Source of the DNA: a virus
IMG/VR virus record: IMGVR_UViG_3300006750_000004
Location: 1-64,000 of that record
Strand: one strand, 5' to 3'
Length of the DNA stretch: 64,000 nucleotides
The notes beneath the pieces were generated by a model, which made no database searches, was not told where the DNA came from, and was given only the letters and a program-made list of their open reading frames with translations. This document shows, one piece after another, positions 8,922 to 59,971 of this stretch. The position numbers and the translations under genes were made by a program. Positions within the stretch are counted from its first letter, which is position 1. Each line of letters begins with the position of its first letter.

Positions 8922-10727
8922 ATGAAATTGGCAAAGATTATAACCCTAGATGACCCGTACTACCTCCAATTGCGACGGTTGTTGGATGGAGCACGGCCAA
9001 TGGTTGTAGAACACACAATTCTCAAACTCAAAAACGGCACTGGCCGAGCTTATCAAGAGCCACAGCCAATACCCTATATATTCATCGAATCCGTGCTTGA
9101 TAGCAATGTGATGAGTGAGGGCGGTCTTGGGGAATTGTTTAAAACAGGGGTTGCTAAACTCAAAGCCGCCCTAACACCAGGGCCTAGTGGGGACCTAGAA
9201 ACATTACTGACGTTTATGGCTCCCAGCAGTGGTGGTCTCCAACAAATCAACCAATTAATCCAACAGGCCAGTAAAGCCGAAGGATCTCTCCTAGACCCCG
9301 CCAATAGCGCTTGGTGGGAAGAACTCTATGGTGCATTTGGGGTAAACGATCAAGAGACTAAGACCGCCGTCCAACAACAAGTCCAGCAAGATCTCTTAAA
9401 TCCTCAACCTGAAGAGCAACCTGAAGAGCAAGCAGATCCCACGGGTCAAGAAGGAACTAACACTGGTGCCGGAGGTGGTAAACAAGCCGCAGTCCAACAT
9501 CGATTACAAATGCTCATAAAGAGGATGCAAGAATTAAAGGCCAAAGCTCAACCCGAACCAGCTCAACCCGAACCAGCTCAACCCGAACCAGCTCAACCCG
9601 AACCAGCTCAACCCGTCGCAAAAGAACTGACCAAGAAGGAAATTCATGACCATATTGCTCGTCTTCGAAAACTGAACCGAGAGGGAAACCTAAGTCAAGA
9701 AGGACAGGAAACCCTCACTCAACTCATCAATCAGCGCAACGCGCCAGCCGACGACGAAGAGCACTTGAACAAGAAGCAAATAATTATGCCTGGAGATACT
9801 CAGCACAGTATGCCGGAAAACCGGATTGTTGCTGAATTGGCTCTCTCACTTTTAACTGAACGATGTGTCAGAAATAATATTGGTATTATTGCGAACTTGA
9901 TGCTCCGGAAAATTGGCTCACCCCAATCTGTGAGGATGCCACTTATCAGTGAAGCCGGTCTAGTCAGTAAACTGAAAGACGCCATCGGCGGTATTCCCAA
10001 TAAATTATCAAGAATGGCAAATACTGCCACAGATATGGTGTCGAATCCGCAATATGCCCAACAGCAACTTGCTGCTTCTGGTGCTAGTAGTAATAATGAA
10101 CGTGCTGCTAAACAAGCAGTGCGGATTTTGACGGATAACTTGAGAGGCCAATTCGAATCTAAGTTGTCTGCAAATGGTCTGACTCCCGACCAAATTCAGA
10201 CTACTTTAGCATCATGGCAGAAATTGAGGCCACAGGCTGAACGTGGCGAAGAAAAAGCTTTGCAACAATACAACATTGCTGCCGAAACCTTGAAGAAAGC
10301 ATTCAAACTCTTCAATGTGGCTGATGGGTCAGAACCCGATGACTACAGCAGCGTCACTGGTGGTTTCGAATCATTGGAACCAGTCGGTGCGCCAGGGAGT
10401 GGTACCCAAATCAGTGGTGTCCAACCAGCTAAATATGGATTCGAGGAACAGGGGATTCCTGCAACATATCTCACTGGAGGTATGACCATGGAACAAACAG
10501 CTCAATTACAAGCCATATTAGCCCACGATCGGTTGGATGTAAATCAATCTTTAATCGTTTGGCGATTAATTACTGGTCGATCACCTGACATGGATAAATT
10601 CCGAGCTGCAATACAAAAAACTGGTAATTCTATACCAAAACCAAAACTCATCAAAGCAGCCAAAAATACTGCAGACAAGATTAGAGCAGCCAACTACGAT
10701 CGTGATAATCCTGTGACCGGATTTTGA
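8922..10727 (+). CDS. Large helical Q-rich protein, putative internal head protein
   Basis: 601-aa ORF; MKL start; several (L/I/M)xE sites (VMSE, LLTE, LISE); AQPEP repeats. Confidence 0.6.
   Translation: MKLAKIITLDDPYYLQLRRLLDGARPMVVEHTILKLKNGTGRAYQEPQPIPYIFIESVLDSNVMSEGGLGELFKTGVAKLKAALTPGPSGDLETLLTFMAPSSGGLQQINQLIQQASKAEGSLLDPANSAWWEELYGAFGVNDQETKTAVQQQVQQDLLNPQPEEQPEEQADPTGQEGTNTGAGGGKQAAVQHRLQMLIKRMQELKAKAQPEPAQPEPAQPEPAQPEPAQPVAKELTKKEIHDHIARLRKLNREGNLSQEGQETLTQLINQRNAPADDEEHLNKKQIIMPGDTQHSMPENRIVAELALSLLTERCVRNNIGIIANLMLRKIGSPQSVRMPLISEAGLVSKLKDAIGGIPNKLSRMANTATDMVSNPQYAQQQLAASGASSNNERAAKQAVRILTDNLRGQFESKLSANGLTPDQIQTTLASWQKLRPQAERGEEKALQQYNIAAETLKKAFKLFNVADGSEPDDYSSVTGGFESLEPVGAPGSGTQISGVQPAKYGFEEQGIPATYLTGGMTMEQTAQLQAILAHDRLDVNQSLIVWRLITGRSPDMDKFRAAIQKTGNSIPKPKLIKAAKNTADKIRAANYDRDNPVTGF
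9546..9615 (+). repeat. 15-bp tandem repeat GCTCAACCCGAACCA, about 4.7 copies (AQPEP)
   Basis: Perfect copies read directly from the sequence. Confidence 0.95.
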
Positions 10728-48131: not shown

Positions 48132-48636
48132 GAATTGTTTCCGGTGCCACAGAAGCCTGAGCTATCTGTTTTGGTGTTGTGGAGTCCACTCCGGGCTGCA
48201 CCGCTGAGGTGATACCCTTTCTTCTTGGATCAGGTATTATTAAACTAGTTACGTTGGTGTCATGGGTAATAAATGTGCCCTGTGGACAAGACCATGCCAT
48301 TTGCCCAGCAATCCCGTTCCTTCTAGTAAAGAATTCTGGGATACCCAACCGCTCCCAACTCTCATAAGAAATCAAAGATGCCGGTCCATAAATAATGTCT
48401 CCATCCAACACCAACGAATCGGTGTGAAAGAATCCATTATTCCGTGTCCTGGTGAGATGGATCACCTTAATCTTCCAGTGGTGGACCACGACACATTTGT
48501 TATCTGCGAAGAAACACCCAGTCCAATTCTCGAAGATGAGTGGGACATTATGCTTTGCAAGATCATCCGCCTCACAGATTTGGACATGCTCATAAGATTG
48601 TCCATCACCAAGAGAAATAAGTTCAGCATTAAACAT
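48106..48636 (-). CDS. Hypothetical protein
   Basis: GGAGG SD, 176 aa. Confidence 0.6.
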   Translation of the reverse strand: MFNAELISLGDGQSYEHVQICEADDLAKHNVPLIFENWTGCFFADNKCVVVHHWKIKVIHLTRTRNNGFFHTDSLVLDGDIIYGPASLISYESWERLGIPEFFTRRNGIAGQMAWSCPQGTFITHDTNVTSLIIPDPRRKGITSAVQPGVDSTTPKQIAQASVAPETIHGKVTRSK

Positions 48637-48918
48637 GATAAATCCTCCGCAGTATTTTTAATGAGCAATAGCGTAACTAATGTCAAATCCCTCATTAATC
48701 CGATCCGGGAGGCTTACATTCTGTGTCCTTAAATAGGGCATCTTGAGTCTGGATAGAGCCAGGGGGCATGAAACCAGACGCAGGTTTCCTTTAGCAATAC
48801 CACGTTTGAGTTGGATGATGTTCCAGGTGCACCAAGTAATGGGAGCCTAGAGCTGTTCATGTATTGTCCGTAAATAAATGTTACAAATTCCAGAACCACT
48901 GTTAATAAAGACAAACAC

Positions 48919-50016
48919 ATGTCAAAAGTTGCAATTACCGCCGATGTTCATTTTGGCGTCACAGACAAGTTAATGGATACCCTATGGGCATGCAGAGTAA
49001 TGCGAGAATATTGTCAAGCAGCCAATATTGACACCGTACTCGTTCTCGGAGATCTCTACCACGATCGTACGTCAATCGGAATTGACGTACTCTCACATGT
49101 TGCAAAATTCTTCGAAGATACAAAAGAGAAATACAACCAAACCTGGATTGCCTTCCCAGGTAACCACGACATGTTCTTAAGACATTCGTGGGGTGTCAAT
49201 AGTCTGGACATCATGCGGCGGCACATGACTGTTATTGATGATGTTAAATTATTAACACTGGATGACCGCCGATTCTGGGTTCTACCCTTCATTACTTATG
49301 AGAAATCATTTATGAAGGTGCTTTATGAAATTGAAAAACAAGTGGAAGACGGGGATTGTCTTCTAACCCATATCGGGGTTAAAGGAGCATTGTATAATAC
49401 ATGTTTTCTACTCCAGGATTGGTCCGTCGTTAATTTCGAACGTACCCCATTCAAACGGATTTATACCGGGCACTTCCACAGCAAACAACAAATTGGAGAG
49501 AATTGTTGGTATCCAGGATCACCAATTCCCTTTAAATTCGACGAGGGAGATGTTGCTCATGGATTTTATGTATATGATCTAGAGGCGGATTCCCATAAAT
49601 TCATCAACATTTGGAAAGCTGGTGCTAAATTCTTCCCAGATGAGGTAGCACCACCTCAATTTCACACATTCTTAGATGAACTTCTGGAAGAAAAAACTGC
49701 GGCCGATGTGTCCAATAATATGATTCGCGTTGGTCTCCAGCGAGAATACACTATAGACGAGAAGCATAGTATACGTAAGTCGTTAATGGATAAGGGGGCC
49801 AGAGTCGTCCGCTGGTGGGATCTAATCACGAAAAAGGAAGAGAAATCCCAAATTACTAAGGGTATCGATTCATCTCAACACAACAGTCTATTTAATGCAT
49901 TCTTATCAGCAGACACCAAAGGAACGAAAGAGTTGAATCATGAGATACTTCTCAAAAGGCACTCAGAAGTGATCAACGAGGGTGATCACGAGTATACTAT
50001 AGAGGAATCAGAATAA
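48919..50016 (+). CDS. sbcD: SbcD/Mre11/gp47-like nuclease
   Basis: D.H, GDLYH, GNHD, TH, GHFH, YPGS. Confidence 0.9.
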   Translation: MSKVAITADVHFGVTDKLMDTLWACRVMREYCQAANIDTVLVLGDLYHDRTSIGIDVLSHVAKFFEDTKEKYNQTWIAFPGNHDMFLRHSWGVNSLDIMRRHMTVIDDVKLLTLDDRRFWVLPFITYEKSFMKVLYEIEKQVEDGDCLLTHIGVKGALYNTCFLLQDWSVVNFERTPFKRIYTGHFHSKQQIGENCWYPGSPIPFKFDEGDVAHGFYVYDLEADSHKFINIWKAGAKFFPDEVAPPQFHTFLDELLEEKTAADVSNNMIRVGLQREYTIDEKHSIRKSLMDKGARVVRWWDLITKKEEKSQITKGIDSSQHNSLFNAFLSADTKGTKELNHEILLKRHSEVINEGDHEYTIEESE

Positions 50017-53616: not shown

Positions 53617-54422
53617 TAGTACTCGGCTGCACTGAAGATGTCTAATATTGCTTGGATGTCTTCTTCTTTGAGTTCTGGGCCGTTCCAGTCGTACCCAGTT
53701 ACTTCGTCACCCTGAATGGCCAGCCAGCCCACGTCAAGGCGGTCGTAGTAGAGAGTTAATCTACCTATGAATGGTTTGAAAGTTGGGTCAGGACTTCCTG
53801 CTTCTTGAGTAGCCAATAATTCAGCTTTTCTGGCTGGGTCTATATCCACGGGCTCGGGGTCTGCCGCATCACCGCCAGCTAGGGCATCGCCAGCTACGCG
53901 CGCGCGAATATTATCCACCATTGTGGTGCCGGGTTGTCCGGCTACTTGTATTTCAATAATCCAGGATCGTGATCCTTCTTCATTCTGGTCTTCTGGAACT
54001 GATGTTACATCTATTTGAACCCACCTGTCCATCATGTCGACAAGATGGAGACCCTCTTCACCGTGTGGGTCGTAGAATCTGTCGTTGTCTTCGAGACCGT
54101 CGTAGTCGGATGATTCGGTGAGCTTCGGACGCTTACGGAGATCCGAAGGGAACGCTGATTTTATACATTTTTTACATTGTCCAGATGACCCGAAACTCGG
54201 CAGTTCGCCACAAAATCCACAAAACAGATAATCACATTCAGTACAAGAAGCAAGGGATCGTTCATAACCACTCACATCACAATAATCACAATTTTCCATT
54301 GTATCTTGATCATCGTCATCTGGTTCCTCGATGAATTCGTCGGCGTCTTCGAGGCCGTCATAATCAGATTCGTCCGGATCTTCCGAAATCATTCTGGCTA
54401 TTTTTTTAGGGTCAATTTTCAT
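53616..54422 (-). CDS. YxGLED-tag family protein (2 tags; Zn finger plus second cargo)
   Basis: MKIDPKKIARMISEDPDESDYDGLEDADEF, four CxxC, KLTESSDYDGLEDNDRF. Confidence 0.75.
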   Translation of the reverse strand: MKIDPKKIARMISEDPDESDYDGLEDADEFIEEPDDDDQDTMENCDYCDVSGYERSLASCTECDYLFCGFCGELPSFGSSGQCKKCIKSAFPSDLRKRPKLTESSDYDGLEDNDRFYDPHGEEGLHLVDMMDRWVQIDVTSVPEDQNEEGSRSWIIEIQVAGQPGTTMVDNIRARVAGDALAGGDAADPEPVDIDPARKAELLATQEAGSPDPTFKPFIGRLTLYYDRLDVGWLAIQGDEVTGYDWNGPELKEEDIQAILDIFSAAEY

Positions 54423-54459
54423 ATCCGTCTCGTCAGTAAGCTTCAATGTTCTTGGCGTA

Positions 54460-55953
54460 CTATCGCCCGTCATCTCGTCGTCGCCAATCGAGTCGCTCTG
54501 CCTCCTCACAATTCGGACATCGCTCGCAGAAGGGACCGTGGATACAAGAACAAGAGAGAGGTAAGGCCGTAGTGCACCATTGACAATTCCAAAAATCACT
54601 TTGTTCTTGTTTTTCTACACATACATCGCACCACATTGTGTTGCAGGAGGCGCAATAAACACCGTGATTAATTATTGCAAGGGGGGAATCCCCCGTAGAT
54701 TCATCTTCTACTGGTGTGCCACACGTCGTGCATGGTGCACTATACCCTTCCGCATCGCTAAACTCATCGGCATCTTCAAGCCCCGCATATTCGCCAGACT
54801 CTCTAATATTGCTCTCGCGGGCGAAGTCTTCATCAGCTATGCAGTCTTGGCAGATATCAAGCGGGGATATTCCCCGCCATCCTGCATGTGAAGTACAATC
54901 GTCACACATTGATTGATTGCATTTGTAGCAATGTGTGACACGATCCCCTTCTTGCCAGGCAGTTCCACACCAACAAAAAGAATTATCTTGAAATTCATCG
55001 GCATCTTCAAGCCCGGCATATTCATTGGCATCTTCATTCACATTTTCAGGTCCAAGAGAACCATGTCCTTGGCAGTAGTCAGTCCGCTCCCCACAATCCG
55101 GACACGTCTCGCAGTATTCCGCATCGGGATCGCAAAATTCGTCGGCGTCCTCGAGTCCCTCGTATGATTCGTTTACGTTGCGTTTATTGGCGGAAGAGAT
55201 CCATTGTTGACGATTTGAGCGTCTAAAGAATCCTAATGGCCCTTCCCGTCCGTTGAATTCTTCCACATCCTGGTCGTTGGCGACCAGAAGTGCGCCGAGG
55301 TTCTGAATGAATTCTTCACTGTCCAAGTACTCTTTACATGATCGACAATATTGATCGTCCTGCTCTAGATCGTTAGTTCCACACACGCCGCAAACATTTG
55401 GTTCGCCGAATTCGTCGGCGTCCTCGAGTCCGGCATAGTCGGATTCGGTAATATGCTTGAGTTTCATTGGAGACCGACGCGCCTCGGACAACTCGCCGTC
55501 GTTCCAGAGATCCATATCTGGCGGCACAGTTTCCTTATAGTGAGCGAAAGCAATATCTTGGATGGCATCTCTTAGGATAGAGGGCTTTGATCCCAATTGG
55601 GGATTTTGGTTTTGGAACCATTGTTCATATTTGGGGTATTCGGCGAGAATAGCGTCTTTAATGCTATCTAGTTCTGAACACCAGCGACATTTGTCAAGGT
55701 CGTAGTCATTTCCGACAGCCCAAATTGGTGGGCCTGTACGAACTGGCTTTTCGAATGCTTCCGATCTGACGAAGATTATTACACTGTCAATATCCCTACT
55801 TTCTTGTTCGTACATGGTGTGAGCAGTGAAGAGATATGGTCCTACTTTCACTGGGCCATAATTATCTTGTTGCCATTCAGCTACGTCGTCAGTGAATTCG
55901 TCGGCGTCTTCGAGGCCGTCGTAGTCGGATTCGGTGATGTGGCGAAGTTTCAT
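54460..55953 (-). CDS. YxGLED-tag polyprotein (5 tags, multiple Zn fingers)
   Basis: Five Y[DAE]GLEDADEF motifs; internal MKLKHITE; many CxxC pairs. Confidence 0.8.
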   Translation of the reverse strand: MKLRHITESDYDGLEDADEFTDDVAEWQQDNYGPVKVGPYLFTAHTMYEQESRDIDSVIIFVRSEAFEKPVRTGPPIWAVGNDYDLDKCRWCSELDSIKDAILAEYPKYEQWFQNQNPQLGSKPSILRDAIQDIAFAHYKETVPPDMDLWNDGELSEARRSPMKLKHITESDYAGLEDADEFGEPNVCGVCGTNDLEQDDQYCRSCKEYLDSEEFIQNLGALLVANDQDVEEFNGREGPLGFFRRSNRQQWISSANKRNVNESYEGLEDADEFCDPDAEYCETCPDCGERTDYCQGHGSLGPENVNEDANEYAGLEDADEFQDNSFCWCGTAWQEGDRVTHCYKCNQSMCDDCTSHAGWRGISPLDICQDCIADEDFARESNIRESGEYAGLEDADEFSDAEGYSAPCTTCGTPVEDESTGDSPLAIINHGVYCASCNTMWCDVCVEKQEQSDFWNCQWCTTALPLSCSCIHGPFCERCPNCEEAERLDWRRRDDGR

Positions 55954-56004
55954 TGATGCTCCAGAATTTCATTGTATCTTCGCCCAGATGGTGCCGGTAT
56001 TTAA

Positions 56005-56625
56005 CGAGTGACGGTAGCCCAACTGCCGTCGACATAGTGGTGACGTTTACCACGAATGATTTCTGCTAATCTTGATCGGTTGGAGCATCGGTTCTTATGG
56101 TGTTCTTGTGGCTTCCTTCGGGGAGTCCGGGTCTCGACAAAGTCGGGTCACCTGCTTCCAACCACCTTACAGGACGTAAGGCTTAAAAGAAACACTGGGC
56201 CTATCTGATAATGATTATCGGCTGCCCGAGATTAAGATGACCGCAGGCTTGGTGAGAACATTGTTGGGGTTACCCAGTGTACCAGCAGACAGATTTGAGC
56301 GTCTAAAGAATCCTAATGGCCCTTGTGCAATTATTCAAGATAGTCCGAAGCTCAAGCGTAAAGTCTGTAAGCATTGGCAGTTGTAATATTTCATCAAGTA
56401 ACTCGACGTCCTTGAGAATGCCGAACCTGATAGAGCATTCGGACTCCCTGGCGGGAGTTGATGACGGCAAGGATATGGACCAGGGGTCGACCAGCACAAT
56501 TCTCCCCAAATCGATTTTAGTGTTGGAGCTTTCCTGAAATCTGAGAGCGGCAAGTCCGCTAACCCGCTTAATTTGTCAGAGACTAAATGAAAGTTTTTGG
56601 CGGTTAGGACGGGGGGAAACGATGT
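56005..56625 (+). ncRNA. Candidate large structured non-coding RNA (~620 nt)
   Basis: No credible ORF; more than 10 helices, a C(UUCG)G tetraloop, long-range pairs; G-U pairs favour the + strand. Confidence 0.6.
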
Positions 56626-56644
56626 CTATCTATAATACTTTCAA

Positions 56645-56791
56645 ATGACTAAAATCCAGAAATTGGAAGCCCCTGACTTTCTAATAGCTCTAAAGCTCAC
56701 ACTATTAATATCAGACCACGCTGGGGCAATCGCTGACACGTTGTTTTTATTGGACAAAGCTGGGCAATGTGCAGTCTATCGAAGGGACTAG
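56645..56791 (+). CDS. Small hypothetical protein (48 aa)
   Basis: MTKIQKLEAPDFLIALKL...; TATAAT at 56631; below the track cutoff. Confidence 0.35.
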   Translation: MTKIQKLEAPDFLIALKLTLLISDHAGAIADTLFLLDKAGQCAVYRRD

Positions 56792-57081
56792 CCATTATGA
56801 TTCTGCTCGATCCTCGCCAAATCATCCTTGAAGTACTGCTGGCAGGAATGGCAGACAATCAGTTGGCCAGATGGATCTTTTAGATTGAAATTGCTGATAC
56901 AATCGCTGCAGAAGTATGCATTTCGGCATCCATCACAACGGAACAACATATGTATTCCGAGTCCGCATGCGTCACATGTTTCCTTATCAACGAACTTGTC
57001 ATCGTCTTCGAGGCCGTCATAATCAGATTCGTCCGGATCTTCCGAAATCATTCTGGCTATTTTTTTAGGGTCAATTTTCAT
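56788..57081 (-). CDS. YxGLED-tag family Zn-finger protein
   Basis: MKIDPKKIARMISEDPDESDYDGLEDDDKF plus four CxxC. Confidence 0.75.
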   Translation of the reverse strand: MKIDPKKIARMISEDPDESDYDGLEDDDKFVDKETCDACGLGIHMLFRCDGCRNAYFCSDCISNFNLKDPSGQLIVCHSCQQYFKDDLARIEQNHNG

Positions 57082-57550
57082 GAATTATACGCCTATTTAT
57101 CGGAGGTTCGCCGGGGAGCCAACCATGATCGTCGGCATACCAAGCACGACCACCTGCCCCGTTTTTGGTCACAATGGCCCATTCATTTTCATTATCGATT
57201 TCTATTTCATAAGTATTATCGATCCCCCAATGTTCGTTTTTAGGATTATCTATTGTTGTTATATAACTATCTGGTTCTGACACCTCGTCTTCGTCATCTC
57301 CAGAAGGGAAATCAGCATCTATATATAATACTCCAAGCTTACCATGGCCCGCTGATACATATCCAGCTTCAACATTATAATGATTGAGAAAGTCTGCAAA
57401 GTTACCATTTTCATCCCCAAACTCATCGGCATCTTCAAGCCCCGCATATTCGTCATCTTGTTTGTTAGATATGTATTCATCGGAGCGATCACTAGGAATA
57501 TTCGGATCTTCCGAAATCATTCTGGCTATTTTTTTAGGGTCAATTTTCAT
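57071..57550 (-). CDS. YxGLED-tag family acidic protein
   Basis: MKIDPKKIARMISED...EYAGLEDADEF. Confidence 0.75.
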   Translation of the reverse strand: MKIDPKKIARMISEDPNIPSDRSDEYISNKQDDEYAGLEDADEFGDENGNFADFLNHYNVEAGYVSAGHGKLGVLYIDADFPSGDDEDEVSEPDSYITTIDNPKNEHWGIDNTYEIEIDNENEWAIVTKNGAGGRAWYADDHGWLPGEPPINRRIIHEN

Positions 57551-57639
57551 TTGCAAGCCTTATAATATAGAACTTTTTGATCACCAAGGGCCTGCTTCTC
57601 TAGACCATCTTTCCCAGGTACCCTCTTCTATTTCGTATT

Positions 57640-58143
57640 TCACACACGGTTTGTGCTGGCGGCAAGTTGTGCTGCGACGATTCGTGCTGCAATAATATTG
57701 GCAGCTACTGTGGGTTTGGTTCTGAGTGATGCTTGTGCTTGGGAGGTGAAATTAGCGACTATATTATCACCAATTTGTTGGAATTTATCGATTCCGGCTA
57801 GTCCATTATCAGCTCCGGCTGGAGAGCCATCCCGAAGTCGATTCCCGCCGATTCCATATGCTTGGCATGATTTAGCTAATTCATGTTCGATTAATTTTTC
57901 TAGTTTGATTGTCATTTCTTCTGGTGATTTGTTGATTATCCATTCGCGTAGTGGTCGGTCTTCGATACAATCGGTGCATACTTCTTCTGGTTCATGTTGC
58001 CGATGGGAGTATCGCCATCGTATTATATCTGCTGCATTAGATCCTATTCCGCAATCGACACATCCATCCGAGAATTGGTCATCGTCCTCGAGACCATAGT
58101 AGTCGGATTCTTGGTCGTTTTCGATTATGTGTCGTAGTTTCAT
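57640..58143 (-). CDS. YxGLED-tag family protein with Zn ribbon
   Basis: MKLRHIIE...DYYGLEDDDQF, CVDC..CTDC. Confidence 0.72.
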   Translation of the reverse strand: MKLRHIIENDQESDYYGLEDDDQFSDGCVDCGIGSNAADIIRWRYSHRQHEPEEVCTDCIEDRPLREWIINKSPEEMTIKLEKLIEHELAKSCQAYGIGGNRLRDGSPAGADNGLAGIDKFQQIGDNIVANFTSQAQASLRTKPTVAANIIAARIVAAQLAASTNRV

Positions 58144-58183
58144 ATTCTAATTTTGGCGGGATGTAGATAAAAGATATGATGAA

Positions 58184-58227
58184 ATTTTGTGTGAGAAATG
58201 AGTATATTTTGTGTGAGAAATGAGTAT
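58184..58227 (+). repeat. 22-bp tandem duplication spanning a start codon
   Basis: ATTTTGTGTGAGAAATGAGTAT twice. Confidence 0.92.
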
Positions 58228-59971
58228 GGCAGATAGTTGTGAAACCAAACCATTCCTGCCACGAAAGGGATCTGAAGGGGATGAGGTTTGTGACAAGTAC
58301 GGGAATCGTTGGAAGTATGATCTAGAGAGTAATGGTTGGATTTCTTCTGGCACGATTACTGATACTCCATTAGTCACAGAGAAGATAGATGGATTGATTA
58401 CATCTGATGCTTTTTCCAATCTTCGGAAATTGCAGACGTACGTTGATCTGGATCCGGACCTCAACACCTTTAAGATGCTCCCTGGTAGGGATGCATATTG
58501 GTACTATTTCCGATCCAGCGATAAGCTCTTCCGGTTTAGGCAGGAAGGAGAAGATTGCCTCCGTGTCGAGGTGGATAAGGGGCGGTTTTTTCAAATTTTG
58601 ATGAAGGAGGTGTGCCCCGGTACTAAGGGGCCAAAGGGAGAGAAGGGCGATAAAGGATTGCCGGGTAATGTTGGGACGGCGGAGGTTTGCTTTACTCCGT
58701 CAGCGATTAATGGCGATCAGATGGATTTCGCCATTTTTACCCCGACTCCGTTGGTTGAGAATGGTCCGATATCCCTGCCCGGTGGTGTTGTGCCTAATGT
58801 CTCTGTTCGGTTGTTTGAAGCAACTATCCCGATTGGTGCGACAGCTACGCAACAAGACCAGATGCAAGATCTGGCTATCTTCTTCAACAATCATGATCCA
58901 CGAGACGAGATACTTCCCAAATTCCAGGCTACTAGGGATTTGTTGCGGAAACGCAGTATGGGAATTATTGCTCAGGATAGTTTGTGCCAGATTCCTTTGA
59001 GTCAGGTTGCTGTTTTACCGTCTGGCACTACGTTAGCTGCTGCACCAAGTGTTACGGTTGAGGTGAATCCGGCAAATCCGTCTCAAGTCACTATTAGTGG
59101 TACTATTCCGGTTGATAATGTCCGTACTGCTAATTCGATTCAGTTTGATCCAGAAACGAATATTGCATGCGGTTCTATTATTTTGGAGCCAGGTAATCAA
59201 TGGTCTGACTTGGAAGCTGATGATTGGTGTATCAAGTCTCGTCAGAAAGGGCCGAATGGTCTGAAGGGGGATGCTGGAGAGTGTCGTATCAAGATCGTTG
59301 AGTGTTTGATCGATGATACGAATATTCGTGCTACGTGTCCTATTGTTAATGCGAGACTCGATTGTGATCGTGAGATAATTTATACCTTATGTTCTGATTT
59401 ATTGACAGAAATCTGTGTCGATAAAGTTAGTTTGCTCCCTGAGTCGACGACACTGGCGAATACCAATGCTTTTAAGAGTGTTTTTGCTGCGGCAGAGATG
59501 ACTCTTGAGGAATGTAAGAGAATCAACCGCTACAAAGTGGGATTAGAGGCGGATGAGCTGCCTGAACTTGATTTGTTGCATTGGGACCCACAACCAGGTT
59601 GTTCTACAAGGAGGCATTATGACAGACACAAGTTTAATTGGATTCCGGACACTGACCTTCCAGCATGTGATTCAACCGCTGCTTGGTTTGGGCCTGATAC
59701 GGTTCGATCTGGGAAGTATCCGCATGAGATTGTCATACCTCCAGAACCGCCAGTTGACGAGTGTTGTCAGGATGAATTCTTCTATTGTCCCAATGTTCAG
59801 GAAGCACCATGCACTGATGACCCGCCATCACCGCCATCACCGCCATCGCCACCGTCATCGCCGTTAGCGGCAGCAGCGGGTCGTGCGGAGGTAGGCGATA
59901 TACCGCTTGGTGGGAGACCCTCTTCTCCTCAACTTCAAATGGGTACGCGTAAGTGGCAGGTAAGGACTTAG
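58220..59971 (+). CDS. Cys-rich virion structural protein with short collagen-like segments
   Basis: GTKGPKGEKGDKGLPG, KGPNGLKGDAG; DKYGNRWKYD; PPS repeats. Confidence 0.65.
   Translation: MSMADSCETKPFLPRKGSEGDEVCDKYGNRWKYDLESNGWISSGTITDTPLVTEKIDGLITSDAFSNLRKLQTYVDLDPDLNTFKMLPGRDAYWYYFRSSDKLFRFRQEGEDCLRVEVDKGRFFQILMKEVCPGTKGPKGEKGDKGLPGNVGTAEVCFTPSAINGDQMDFAIFTPTPLVENGPISLPGGVVPNVSVRLFEATIPIGATATQQDQMQDLAIFFNNHDPRDEILPKFQATRDLLRKRSMGIIAQDSLCQIPLSQVAVLPSGTTLAAAPSVTVEVNPANPSQVTISGTIPVDNVRTANSIQFDPETNIACGSIILEPGNQWSDLEADDWCIKSRQKGPNGLKGDAGECRIKIVECLIDDTNIRATCPIVNARLDCDREIIYTLCSDLLTEICVDKVSLLPESTTLANTNAFKSVFAAAEMTLEECKRINRYKVGLEADELPELDLLHWDPQPGCSTRRHYDRHKFNWIPDTDLPACDSTAAWFGPDTVRSGKYPHEIVIPPEPPVDECCQDEFFYCPNVQEAPCTDDPPSPPSPPSPPSSPLAAAAGRAEVGDIPLGGRPSSPQLQMGTRKWQVRT

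Follow-up and report, generated by a model that had tools for sequence, protein, structure and literature searches.

To our knowledge, RNAs of 600 nt or more with complex folds supported by covariation are limited to a handful of bacterial and phage classes (OLE, GOLLD, ROOL, HEARO and raiA). OLE, GOLLD and ROOL have recently been shown to form RNA-only assemblies (bioRxiv 10.1101/2024.12.08.627333), and a survey of structured RNAs in IMG/VR (Fremin et al. 2023, PMC10690425) reported motifs of 29–151 nt only. Here we describe a large RNA of an uncultured marine phage, encoded on the + strand at 56005–56625 of a 64,000-nucleotide stretch of DNA (hereafter, the window) that forms the first 64 kb of the 95.7-kb IMG/VR virus record IMGVR_UViG_3300006750_000004, the completeness of which is estimated at ~26%. 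An initial annotation of the window had proposed that this interval is free of genes and encodes a structured noncoding RNA (ncRNA) of ~620 nt that can be assigned to no family, and all of this was borne out. It is almost certain that the element is a genuine, conserved structured RNA read from the + strand and that it represents a new family, and the comparisons show that it is evidently the fold that selection keeps, not a protein and not the sequence of a hypervariable arm tip. The family is new by both sequence and structure and belongs in kind to the small group of large 'ornate' RNAs known from phages and bacteria; a full-text search of the literature found no account of a comparable RNA.

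Homologs were located through a 583-aa gene (58220–59971) that lies downstream of the RNA in the window and is co-oriented with it, in four and then in nine related phage contigs from IMG/VR. The RNA is present in all 9 other IMG/VR contigs carrying this gene (8 distinct sequences), on the same strand as the gene, and the comparison set comprises 10 contigs including the window, with 9 distinct sequences. By blastn, one relative (G001) is 75% identical over window positions 55964–56617, and a partial piece was found in another (G004). Pairwise alignment with G001 gives 74% nucleotide identity over 56005–56620, and conservation drops to near random past ~56620, after a run of G residues; full-length alignment was achieved with G004 and G003. 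Two covariance models were built, one for the 3′ core (R1) and one for the 5′ domain (R2). R1 finds a single copy in each of the 10 contigs (E values of 1e-23 to 1e-53), located upstream of the 583-aa gene and in the same orientation. R2 matches 8 of the 9 distinct sequences; on contig L036 it gives no match at E ≤ 1, and the hairpins P1 and P2 and the long arm described below are discernible there by eye. The window copy reaches 190.9 bits under R1 and 191.6 bits under R2, and the RNA is single copy in both complete genomes (G002 and G004).

The initial annotation had proposed looking for homologs and covariation, and the homologs found show strong covariation. In an RNAalifold analysis of three sequences, 47 of 157 pairs carry compensatory changes. 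For the 9 distinct sequences aligned to R1, 95.3% of the paired cells hold standard pairs, compared with 37–47% when partners are slid by 1–3 columns, and 29 of the 41 pairs have changed on both sides; none of 500 shuffles reached the observed values. The R2 alignment behaves in the same way (94.9% of cells paired against 32–42% after sliding; 39 of 49 pairs compensatory; 0 of 500 shuffles). Taken over R1 and R2, compensatory changes are found in 68 of 90 modelled pairs, and the RNA is kept among phages whose neighbouring proteins are only 48% identical.

Six-frame translation of 55954–56790 gives no open reading frame (ORF) longer than 73 aa in any frame, and no ORF crosses the stretch under genetic code table 4 (TGA as a sense codon) or with TAG read as Q. 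Since mismatches to G001 are spread evenly over the codon positions (52/52/55) and indels measure 1, 2 and 4 nt, with no codon periodicity, the stretch is not coding; comparison of the downstream 48-aa ORF (56645–56791) with the ORF in the corresponding place in G001 was likewise negative for coding. Fold z-scores, computed against dinucleotide shuffles, are −2.60 on the + strand and +0.45 on the − strand for the whole region, where only the + strand value is negative. The corresponding values are −2.93 (2 of 200 shuffles fold equally well) and −1.49 for the 5′ domain, and −1.47 and +0.61 for the 3′ part. Such z-scores are moderate and no proof taken alone; the covariation is decisive. That the RNA is read from the + strand follows from the paired cells of the homologs, among which G-U or U-G occurs 79 times and A-C or C-A 9 times.

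The whole RNA gene is placed at 55997–56619 on the + strand, with both ends deduced from sequence only: the 5′ limit is either a GUAUUUA box (55997–56003) or the start of P1 at 56009, and at the 3′ side the gene is taken to stop where the G-run pairing ends. The originally proposed boundaries, 56005 and 56625, agree with the conservation drop and with the G-run at 56611–56618 that the pseudoknot described below requires. The GUAUUUA box is found in the same relative place in 8 of the 9 distinct sequences and may represent either a −10-like promoter element or the 5′ terminus of the transcript. A GTATT motif near 55997 had been noted from the start, and as a conserved GTATTTA box it stands; as a genome-wide motif it does not, with 10 occurrences of GTATTTA in the window against 7.5 expected. 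Scans for consensus sigma-70 promoters and intrinsic terminators gave nothing convincing.

The modelled fold begins with two hairpins on the + strand, P1 (56009–17/56023–31) and P2 (56037–42/56048–53), separated by a conserved CAUAG. P1 is formed by GACGG/CCGUC in the window, GGUGG/CCACC in G004 and GGCGAC/GUCGCC in L039, and P2, which holds in nine sequences, shows a compensatory change from U-A to C-G. The 5′ multi-branch domain (R2, 56061–56248) is closed by helices 56061–66/56243–48 and 56069–77/56230–38; its branches are 56078–87/56153–63 with 56109–16/56129–36, 56165–70/56176–81, and 56197–200/56224–27 with 56205–10/56216–21. Between the two domains lies a long arm (56247–56399) composed of helices 56247–57/56389–99, 56263–80/56371–87, 56285–90/56363–68 and 56291–300/56350–59, in which the CCAGUGU/GCAUUGG (56274–80/56374–80) and CAG/CUG helices covary and are kept in 8 sequences.

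The 3′ core (R1) opens with an invariant AACUCGA, which leads into a three-way junction (56400–56474 together) of helices 56408–14/56468–74, 56416–22/56433–40 and 56442–48/56453–59. In this junction, 18 of 21 pairs have changed on both sides, and the loop of helix 56416–22/56433–40 contains the invariant CUGAUAGAG. Stacked helices follow at 56477–56542 (56477–79/56540–42, 56481–85/56532–36 and 56491–97/56520–26), with invariant internal loops UCGACC and GGAGCUU and a C-rich apical loop (56498–56519). The stretch after the stack (56546–56610) consists of a hairpin (56546–50/56556–60) and an A/U-rich 3′ hairpin (~56563–56610) that differs in length and sequence in every homolog. A search across both modelled domains for further long-range helices, requiring strict complementarity in all sequences, found none beyond those already known.

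Many of these helices had been picked out by eye from the window alone. Those at 56010–30 and 56037–53 were recovered as P1 and P2 with support from the homologs, the GCUUCC/GGGAGU hairpin and CCUUAC/GUAAGG as R2 helices, and the GUCCUUG/CAAGGAU junction enclosing two hairpins, together with AGCGG/CCGCU, as R1 helices. Two other proposals had to be revised. Neither G001 nor G004 keeps the long-range pairing ACACTGGG/CCCAGTGT, and CCAGUGU/GCAUUGG and a local GGGC/GCCC covary instead; the supposed pseudoknot CTAACC/GGTTAG is actually the base of the nested, lineage-variable 3′ hairpin.

A conserved (U/G)AGGRCGG motif in the 3′ tail includes the G-run (56611–56618, + strand), whose partner is the C-rich loop at 56500–56507; this pairing, suggested at the outset as UUCUCCCC/GGGGGGAA (56500/56611), is confirmed as a covarying pseudoknot. 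Complementarity of 6–12 bp is present in all 9 distinct sequences. In three lineages the C-run contains an A (CCCCAC, CCCACC and CUCCACC), which is matched by a U within the G-run (GUGGGG, GGUGGG and GGUGGAG). The A-bearing loops pair poorly with plain G-runs, as found in the other six sequences (scores of 9–12), and well with the U-bearing G-runs, whether their own or each other's (14–20). Because the pseudoknot requires the G-run, the 3′ limit of the RNA lies at 56618 or beyond. The contact would be an intramolecular pseudoknot or possibly, by analogy, an intermolecular kissing contact, as covariation-predicted 'pseudoknots' of ROOL and GOLLD proved to be intermolecular (bioRxiv 10.1101/2024.12.08.627333). 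As a separate observation, the invariant unpaired stretches AACUCGA (56400–56406) and (U/G)UCGACC (56486–56491) each hold the palindrome UCGA; these stretches could pair with one another or with the same site on a second molecule, and their invariance precludes covariation.

The tip of the long arm (~56301–56349) is hypervariable. It measures 50 nt in the window, the spacing between the two modelled domains ranges from 123 to 297 nt in seven homologs, and the RNA as a whole extends from ~620 nt in the window to more than 1 kb in relatives. The G004 tip contains ~170 extra nt with CAACAGUC repeats, and that of G002 at least 30 tandem copies of the 9-nt unit CCAGUUGAA. In G002 (IMGVR_UViG_3300013121_000020, 354 kb), the RNA copy is split over both contig ends (L032:1440–1592 and L033:1–150), with the break inside the tandem repeat of the arm; the ends carry 16.6 and 14.1 copies of the same 9-nt repeat, CCAGTTGAA. 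As both ends lie inside one repeat, the G002 assembly is circular or permuted and was broken by the repeat, and the figure of at least 30 copies is a lower bound. In L037 (2620–2765), an extra G+C-rich insertion of ~130 nt occurs between the long arm and the AACUCGA junction, which makes this a second expansion-tolerant site.

In the window, the RNA is flanked by a 497-aa gene (54460–55953, − strand) and a 97-aa gene (56788–57081, − strand), which are part of a run of − strand genes with common YxGLEDADEF repeats, the tag array. The variable tip contains a 33-mer (56292–56324, + strand) that is identical to 55212–55244 and perfectly antisense to the mRNA of the 497-aa gene; the target copy, on the − strand, encodes ...EGPLGFFRRSN... 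in a linker of the protein. The identity is 33 of 33 with sharp edges (E ~1e-12 in the 96-kb record), and independent metagenome contigs cover both copies. No counterpart was found in G001 or in the complete G004 genome, which makes the 33-mer a lineage-specific feature. Its 5′ end pairs with a partner outside the repeat in a helix that G001 keeps with different letters, and the gene is therefore likelier to have copied the RNA than the reverse. An origin of the 33-mer from a diversity-generating retroelement or a retron was rejected, no reverse transcriptase (RVT_1) being present in the record.

The initial annotation had placed the ncRNA inside the tag array, and its location there is correct; the RNA is not, however, a product of the array. 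In G002, G003 and G004 it stands right after the SbcD-like gene with no − strand tag-type genes beside it, and it is therefore older than the array. Used as a query for related loci, the 497-aa tag gene led to no pattern match. Metagenome contigs from two runs link far-apart tag-array genes (54759/57419 and 57527/54400, with exact shared repeats of 34 and 23 nt), and these joints are either true recombinant variants or assembly jumps caused by the repeats.

As far as searched, only one small clade of uncultured huge phages, whose genomes measure ~350–410 kb, has this RNA family. The window carries PurZ-like, SbcC/SbcD-like, helicase and sugar-pathway genes, and the relatives of its phage are contigs of 90–408 kb, two of them near-complete (354 and 408 kb). 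A blastn search of GenBank phages (n = 50,697) gave no match; by tblastn with the helicase, the best cultured relatives are ~31% identical or less, and the host is not inferable. DNA near-identical to 54000–58500 was present in 20 marine DNA metagenome runs from 15 studies. In assembled contigs of four marine runs, zero variants fell in the RNA and five in the flanking genes, a weak contrast given the low depth. Scans with a strict core pattern found one metagenome contig, of the same phage, and none among cellular genome contigs. A looser pattern gave 8 extra viral and at least 119 genome matches, which were dismissed as chance since the 8 viral and 80 listed genome matches fail R1; no family member was found in cellular genomes among the matches listed. 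Among the matches listed, pattern scanning places the family in ten viral contigs and one short metagenome contig of the window phage.

We consider it quite probable that the RNA acts in trans and is not a cis leader, since its conservation is independent of the downstream genes and the next genes in the window lie on the opposite strand. The reading that we favour, at slightly better than even probability, is that of a stand-alone, trans-acting large phage RNA, like ROOL and GOLLD in kind and a member of neither. We hypothesize that the two 5′ hairpins, the 5′ multi-branch domain, the long arm with its variable tip, the 3′ three-way junction and helix stack, and the pairing of the C-loop with the G-tail would together fold into a compact particle acting in trans, either through RNA-only assembly or as the scaffold of a ribonucleoprotein (RNP). 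This proposal follows from the likeness to ROOL and GOLLD (phage-borne, 600–800 nt, pseudoknot-rich, with an unconserved linker and no partner gene). The hypervariable tip would then be a tolerated or 'cargo' region, and the 33-mer antisense to a tag-array gene, which the tip gained in the window phage, may add a lineage-specific antisense effect but is not the function of the family.

A scaffold or self-assembly mechanism specifically, drawn as it is from analogy, must be regarded as doubtful. More specific still, and unlikely, is the idea of a third class of large phage RNA, with an evolutionary origin of its own, whose molecules would join into an RNA-only multimer or cage like those of ROOL and GOLLD. 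In such an assembly, the C-loop/G-tail pairing, the two UCGA palindromic stretches, or both, would be intermolecular contacts, and the tip would be an internal linker with lineage-specific cargo, such as the tandem repeats or the 33-mer antisense to the phage's own tag-array gene.

Several points weigh against a stand-alone particle. Among the sequencing runs found to contain the stretch none is of RNA, so that the transcript is a predicted one, and oligomerisation or protein binding as its mechanism is proposed by analogy. Unlike ROOL and GOLLD, the RNA has no nearby tRNA genes and no Rfam match, so that the relation is one of analogy, not homology. In four contigs with three distinct sequences (L035/L042, L036 and L039), only 125–300 nt separate it from the 583-aa gene downstream, so that it may have had an ancestral role in cis. 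The thermodynamic support is modest (z-scores of −1.5 to −2.9), and the covariation counts come partly from model-fitted alignments of only 8–9 distinct, related sequences. The last of these caveats is countered by the slid-partner control, which retains the relatedness of the sequences, yet in which pairing collapses.

The strongest rival is a protein-binding RNA, a sponge or RNP subunit whose core docks a phage or host protein and whose tip titrates an RNA-binding protein through repeated single-stranded GUUGA(A/C) words, in the manner of CsrB or RsmZ. The word GTTGA is enriched in the tips of 5 of the 9 lineages, with 3 copies observed against 0.19 expected in L035, 3 against 0.33 in L036 and 2 against 0.14 in L037, one copy in G001 and at least 28 in the tandem array of G002. 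The invariant unpaired AACUCGA, CUGAUAGAG, UCGACC and GGAGCUU also look as contact surfaces would. However, the window phage, G003 and L039 lack the word in their tips, G004 has it inverted, and tandem repeats may be neutral slippage in a tolerant loop. Neither is there a candidate partner gene linked to the RNA: the genes between it and the next + strand gene differ from lineage to lineage (NUDIX and HNH in G001, a PduO-type adenosyltransferase in G004), and since neighbours vary in this way no linked protein partner is evident. Overall, we judge this explanation distinctly unlikely. Neighbours that could be named with Pfam and PHROGs are NUDIX, HNH, PduO-type adenosyltransferase and C39-like peptidase. 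The slot downstream of the RNA that holds such cargo (L006:9299–9853 in G004; L003:8521–9048 and 9476–9997 in G001) looks like an insertion hot spot.

There is a small chance that the RNA is a replication-origin primer forming a persistent hybrid at its G-rich 3′ end, as do ColE1 RNA II and the R-loops of T4 oriF/oriG. In both complete genomes, a strand switch and a GC-skew minimum coincide with the RNA, which lies just to the right of the main leftward-to-rightward gene switch. In G002 it directly follows the SbcD-like gene, at the contig junction that is the global minimum of cumulative GC skew; in G004 it occupies 125.5–126.4 kb, ~1.5 kb from the switch, and a local skew minimum is at ~130 kb. 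The RNA is found beside the SbcD/SbcC/helicase module, with A/T-rich DNA following the conserved G-run near its 3′ end. Yet GC skew follows gene orientation in these genomes, so that skew and strand switch are one signal and not two, and the covariation of loop and tail is more simply explained as RNA–RNA pairing. In the window, moreover, the switch is at ~48.7–48.9 kb, 7 kb from the RNA, with ~6 kb of extra genes between the SbcD-like gene and the RNA. The 9-nt repeats fit iterons poorly, and there was no sign of an initiator, an RNase H site or an analogue of antisense RNA I. Switch sites were located at 48636–48919 in the window, at ~127.9–128.2 kb in G004 and at L081:12423–12480, the SbcD-like gene being the first rightward gene; the switch region is a candidate replication origin or early-promoter region.

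A similarly slim probability attaches to a giant cis leader (an attenuator, antiterminator or riboswitch-like element) for the late operon that starts with the 583-aa gene. In 10 of 10 contigs the RNA precedes this gene in the same orientation, the gap shrinks to ~125–300 nt in L039, L035/L042 and L036, and a TATA-like box follows the G-run. Against this, 1.6 kb of opposite-strand genes separate the RNA from the 583-aa gene in the window, where the RNA is intact, and in five other lineages 0.8–3 kb of unrelated genes intervene and the RNA is equally conserved. No terminator-like element follows the RNA, which, with its 620 nt and two independent domains, far exceeds known leaders in size. The box itself, CTATA or TATAAT-like, occurs 9–15 nt past the G-run in every homolog (window 56620–56645: TCTATAAT). 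This box is a possible promoter for the late genes downstream, and it is orphaned in the window, where the next genes face the opposite way. The 583-aa gene gave no significant Pfam or PHROGs match. Its product and homologs show a run of collagen-like G-x-y units, numerous invariant Cys residues and poly-Pro at the C-terminus (the window product is collagen-like, Cys-rich and Pro-rich), a GT2 glycosyltransferase gene follows downstream, and the protein is probably a glycosylated structural fibre. In G003 this neighbour is fused into a 1145-aa ORF.

Antisense control of the 497-aa tag-array gene by the 33-mer, through mRNA decay or a block of translation, is very improbable as the main role of the RNA. 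The match is complementary at 33 of 33 positions (E ~1e-12), its target is the adjacent gene, and the 33-mer is predicted to be slightly more accessible than the RNA at large (mean unpaired probability 0.45 against 0.37 for the whole). Absent from G001 and G004, however, it cannot explain a 600-nt fold kept throughout the family. It may be a recombination scar, and the placement of its 5′ part in a helix whose partner lies outside the repeat suggests that the gene copied the RNA and argues against a designed guide. Finally, the notion that there is no functional RNA here, only a decayed gene or spacer with coincidental structure, could appeal to the fast-changing gene array and the only moderate z-scores, yet it retains almost no probability and is, as far as computation can show, refuted by the covariation (compensatory changes in 68 of 90 pairs, with ~40% pairing when slid by one base) and by the lack of a codon signal in a sequence conserved beside proteins only 48% identical.

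The family adds a further class of large RNA from another setting, the uncultured huge phages. Its clean, well-supported secondary structure, defined pseudoknot and natural hypervariable insertion site make it an immediate candidate for cryo-electron microscopy and for studying the benefit of such RNAs to phages. Its position at a strand switch beside replication and recombination genes offers a testable link to genome replication or to early and late transcription, and R1 and R2 can be used to annotate the family in other metagenomes.

We compared the RNA with the described classes through Rfam 15, which gave no hit at the gathering score in the window or in the nine homologous loci; cmscan of the copies in the window, G004 and G003 returned no relevant or large-RNA hit at E ≤ 10, in accord with the lack of an assignable family noted initially. 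The only near-hit, CRISPR-DR66 (E 1.9), lies outside the RNA and is due to chance. GOLLD, ROOL, OLE, HEARO, group I and II introns, RNase P, tmRNA, riboswitches and the other families are thereby excluded as currently modelled in Rfam. An intron of group I or II was rejected also because the flanking ORFs in G004, G003 and G002 are in separate frames with their own starts and stops and do not form a split gene. ARAGORN detected no tRNA or tmRNA in the window or within 6–10 kb of any homolog. A guide RNA (omega-RNA/HEARO or tracr/crRNA) or a retroelement RNA was dismissed in turn, as there is no conserved adjacent nuclease or reverse transcriptase and the 33-mer is internal and limited to one phage; the named neighbours are metabolic proteins, a free-standing HNH endonuclease or structural proteins.

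Among RNAs with a known role, phi29 pRNA (~170 nt, encoded near the genome end beside the packaging genes) is likewise a phage-encoded structured RNA and works as an oligomer through intermolecular loop–loop pairing, but no likeness to the new RNA was seen in sequence or structure, and no Rfam hit connects the two. The likeness to ColE1 RNA II and other R-loop primers lies in a length of ~550–620 nt, a required conserved fold and a G-rich element near the 3′ end, along with the location of the new RNA at a strand switch and GC-skew minimum beside replication and recombination genes. The contact between C-rich and G-rich segments is reminiscent of ColE1 RNA II; in the new RNA, however, it covaries as an RNA–RNA helix.

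The closest parallels remain the large phage RNAs. GOLLD (RF01998) is a large RNA of phages and prophages, found also in marine metagenomes, with two domains and a variable linker able to hold extra elements. Whereas the 5′ half of GOLLD is poorly conserved, both domains of the new RNA are conserved and covary, and the new RNA has neither a match to the GOLLD model nor adjacent tRNA genes. ROOL (RF03087), which forms a homo-octameric RNA-only cage, is carried by Firmicutes prophages, often beside tRNA islands, whereas the new RNA, with no Rfam match and no tRNA genes nearby, belongs to uncultured huge phages, here a phage whose IMG/VR record encodes PurZ, SbcCD and a helicase. In both ROOL and the new RNA, an unconserved linker interrupts the fold, and neither is known to have a linked protein partner. 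The two are alike, too, in being phage-borne RNAs of ~600–660 nt with a dense multi-helix fold and pseudoknots supported by covariation (bioRxiv 10.1101/2024.12.08.627333).

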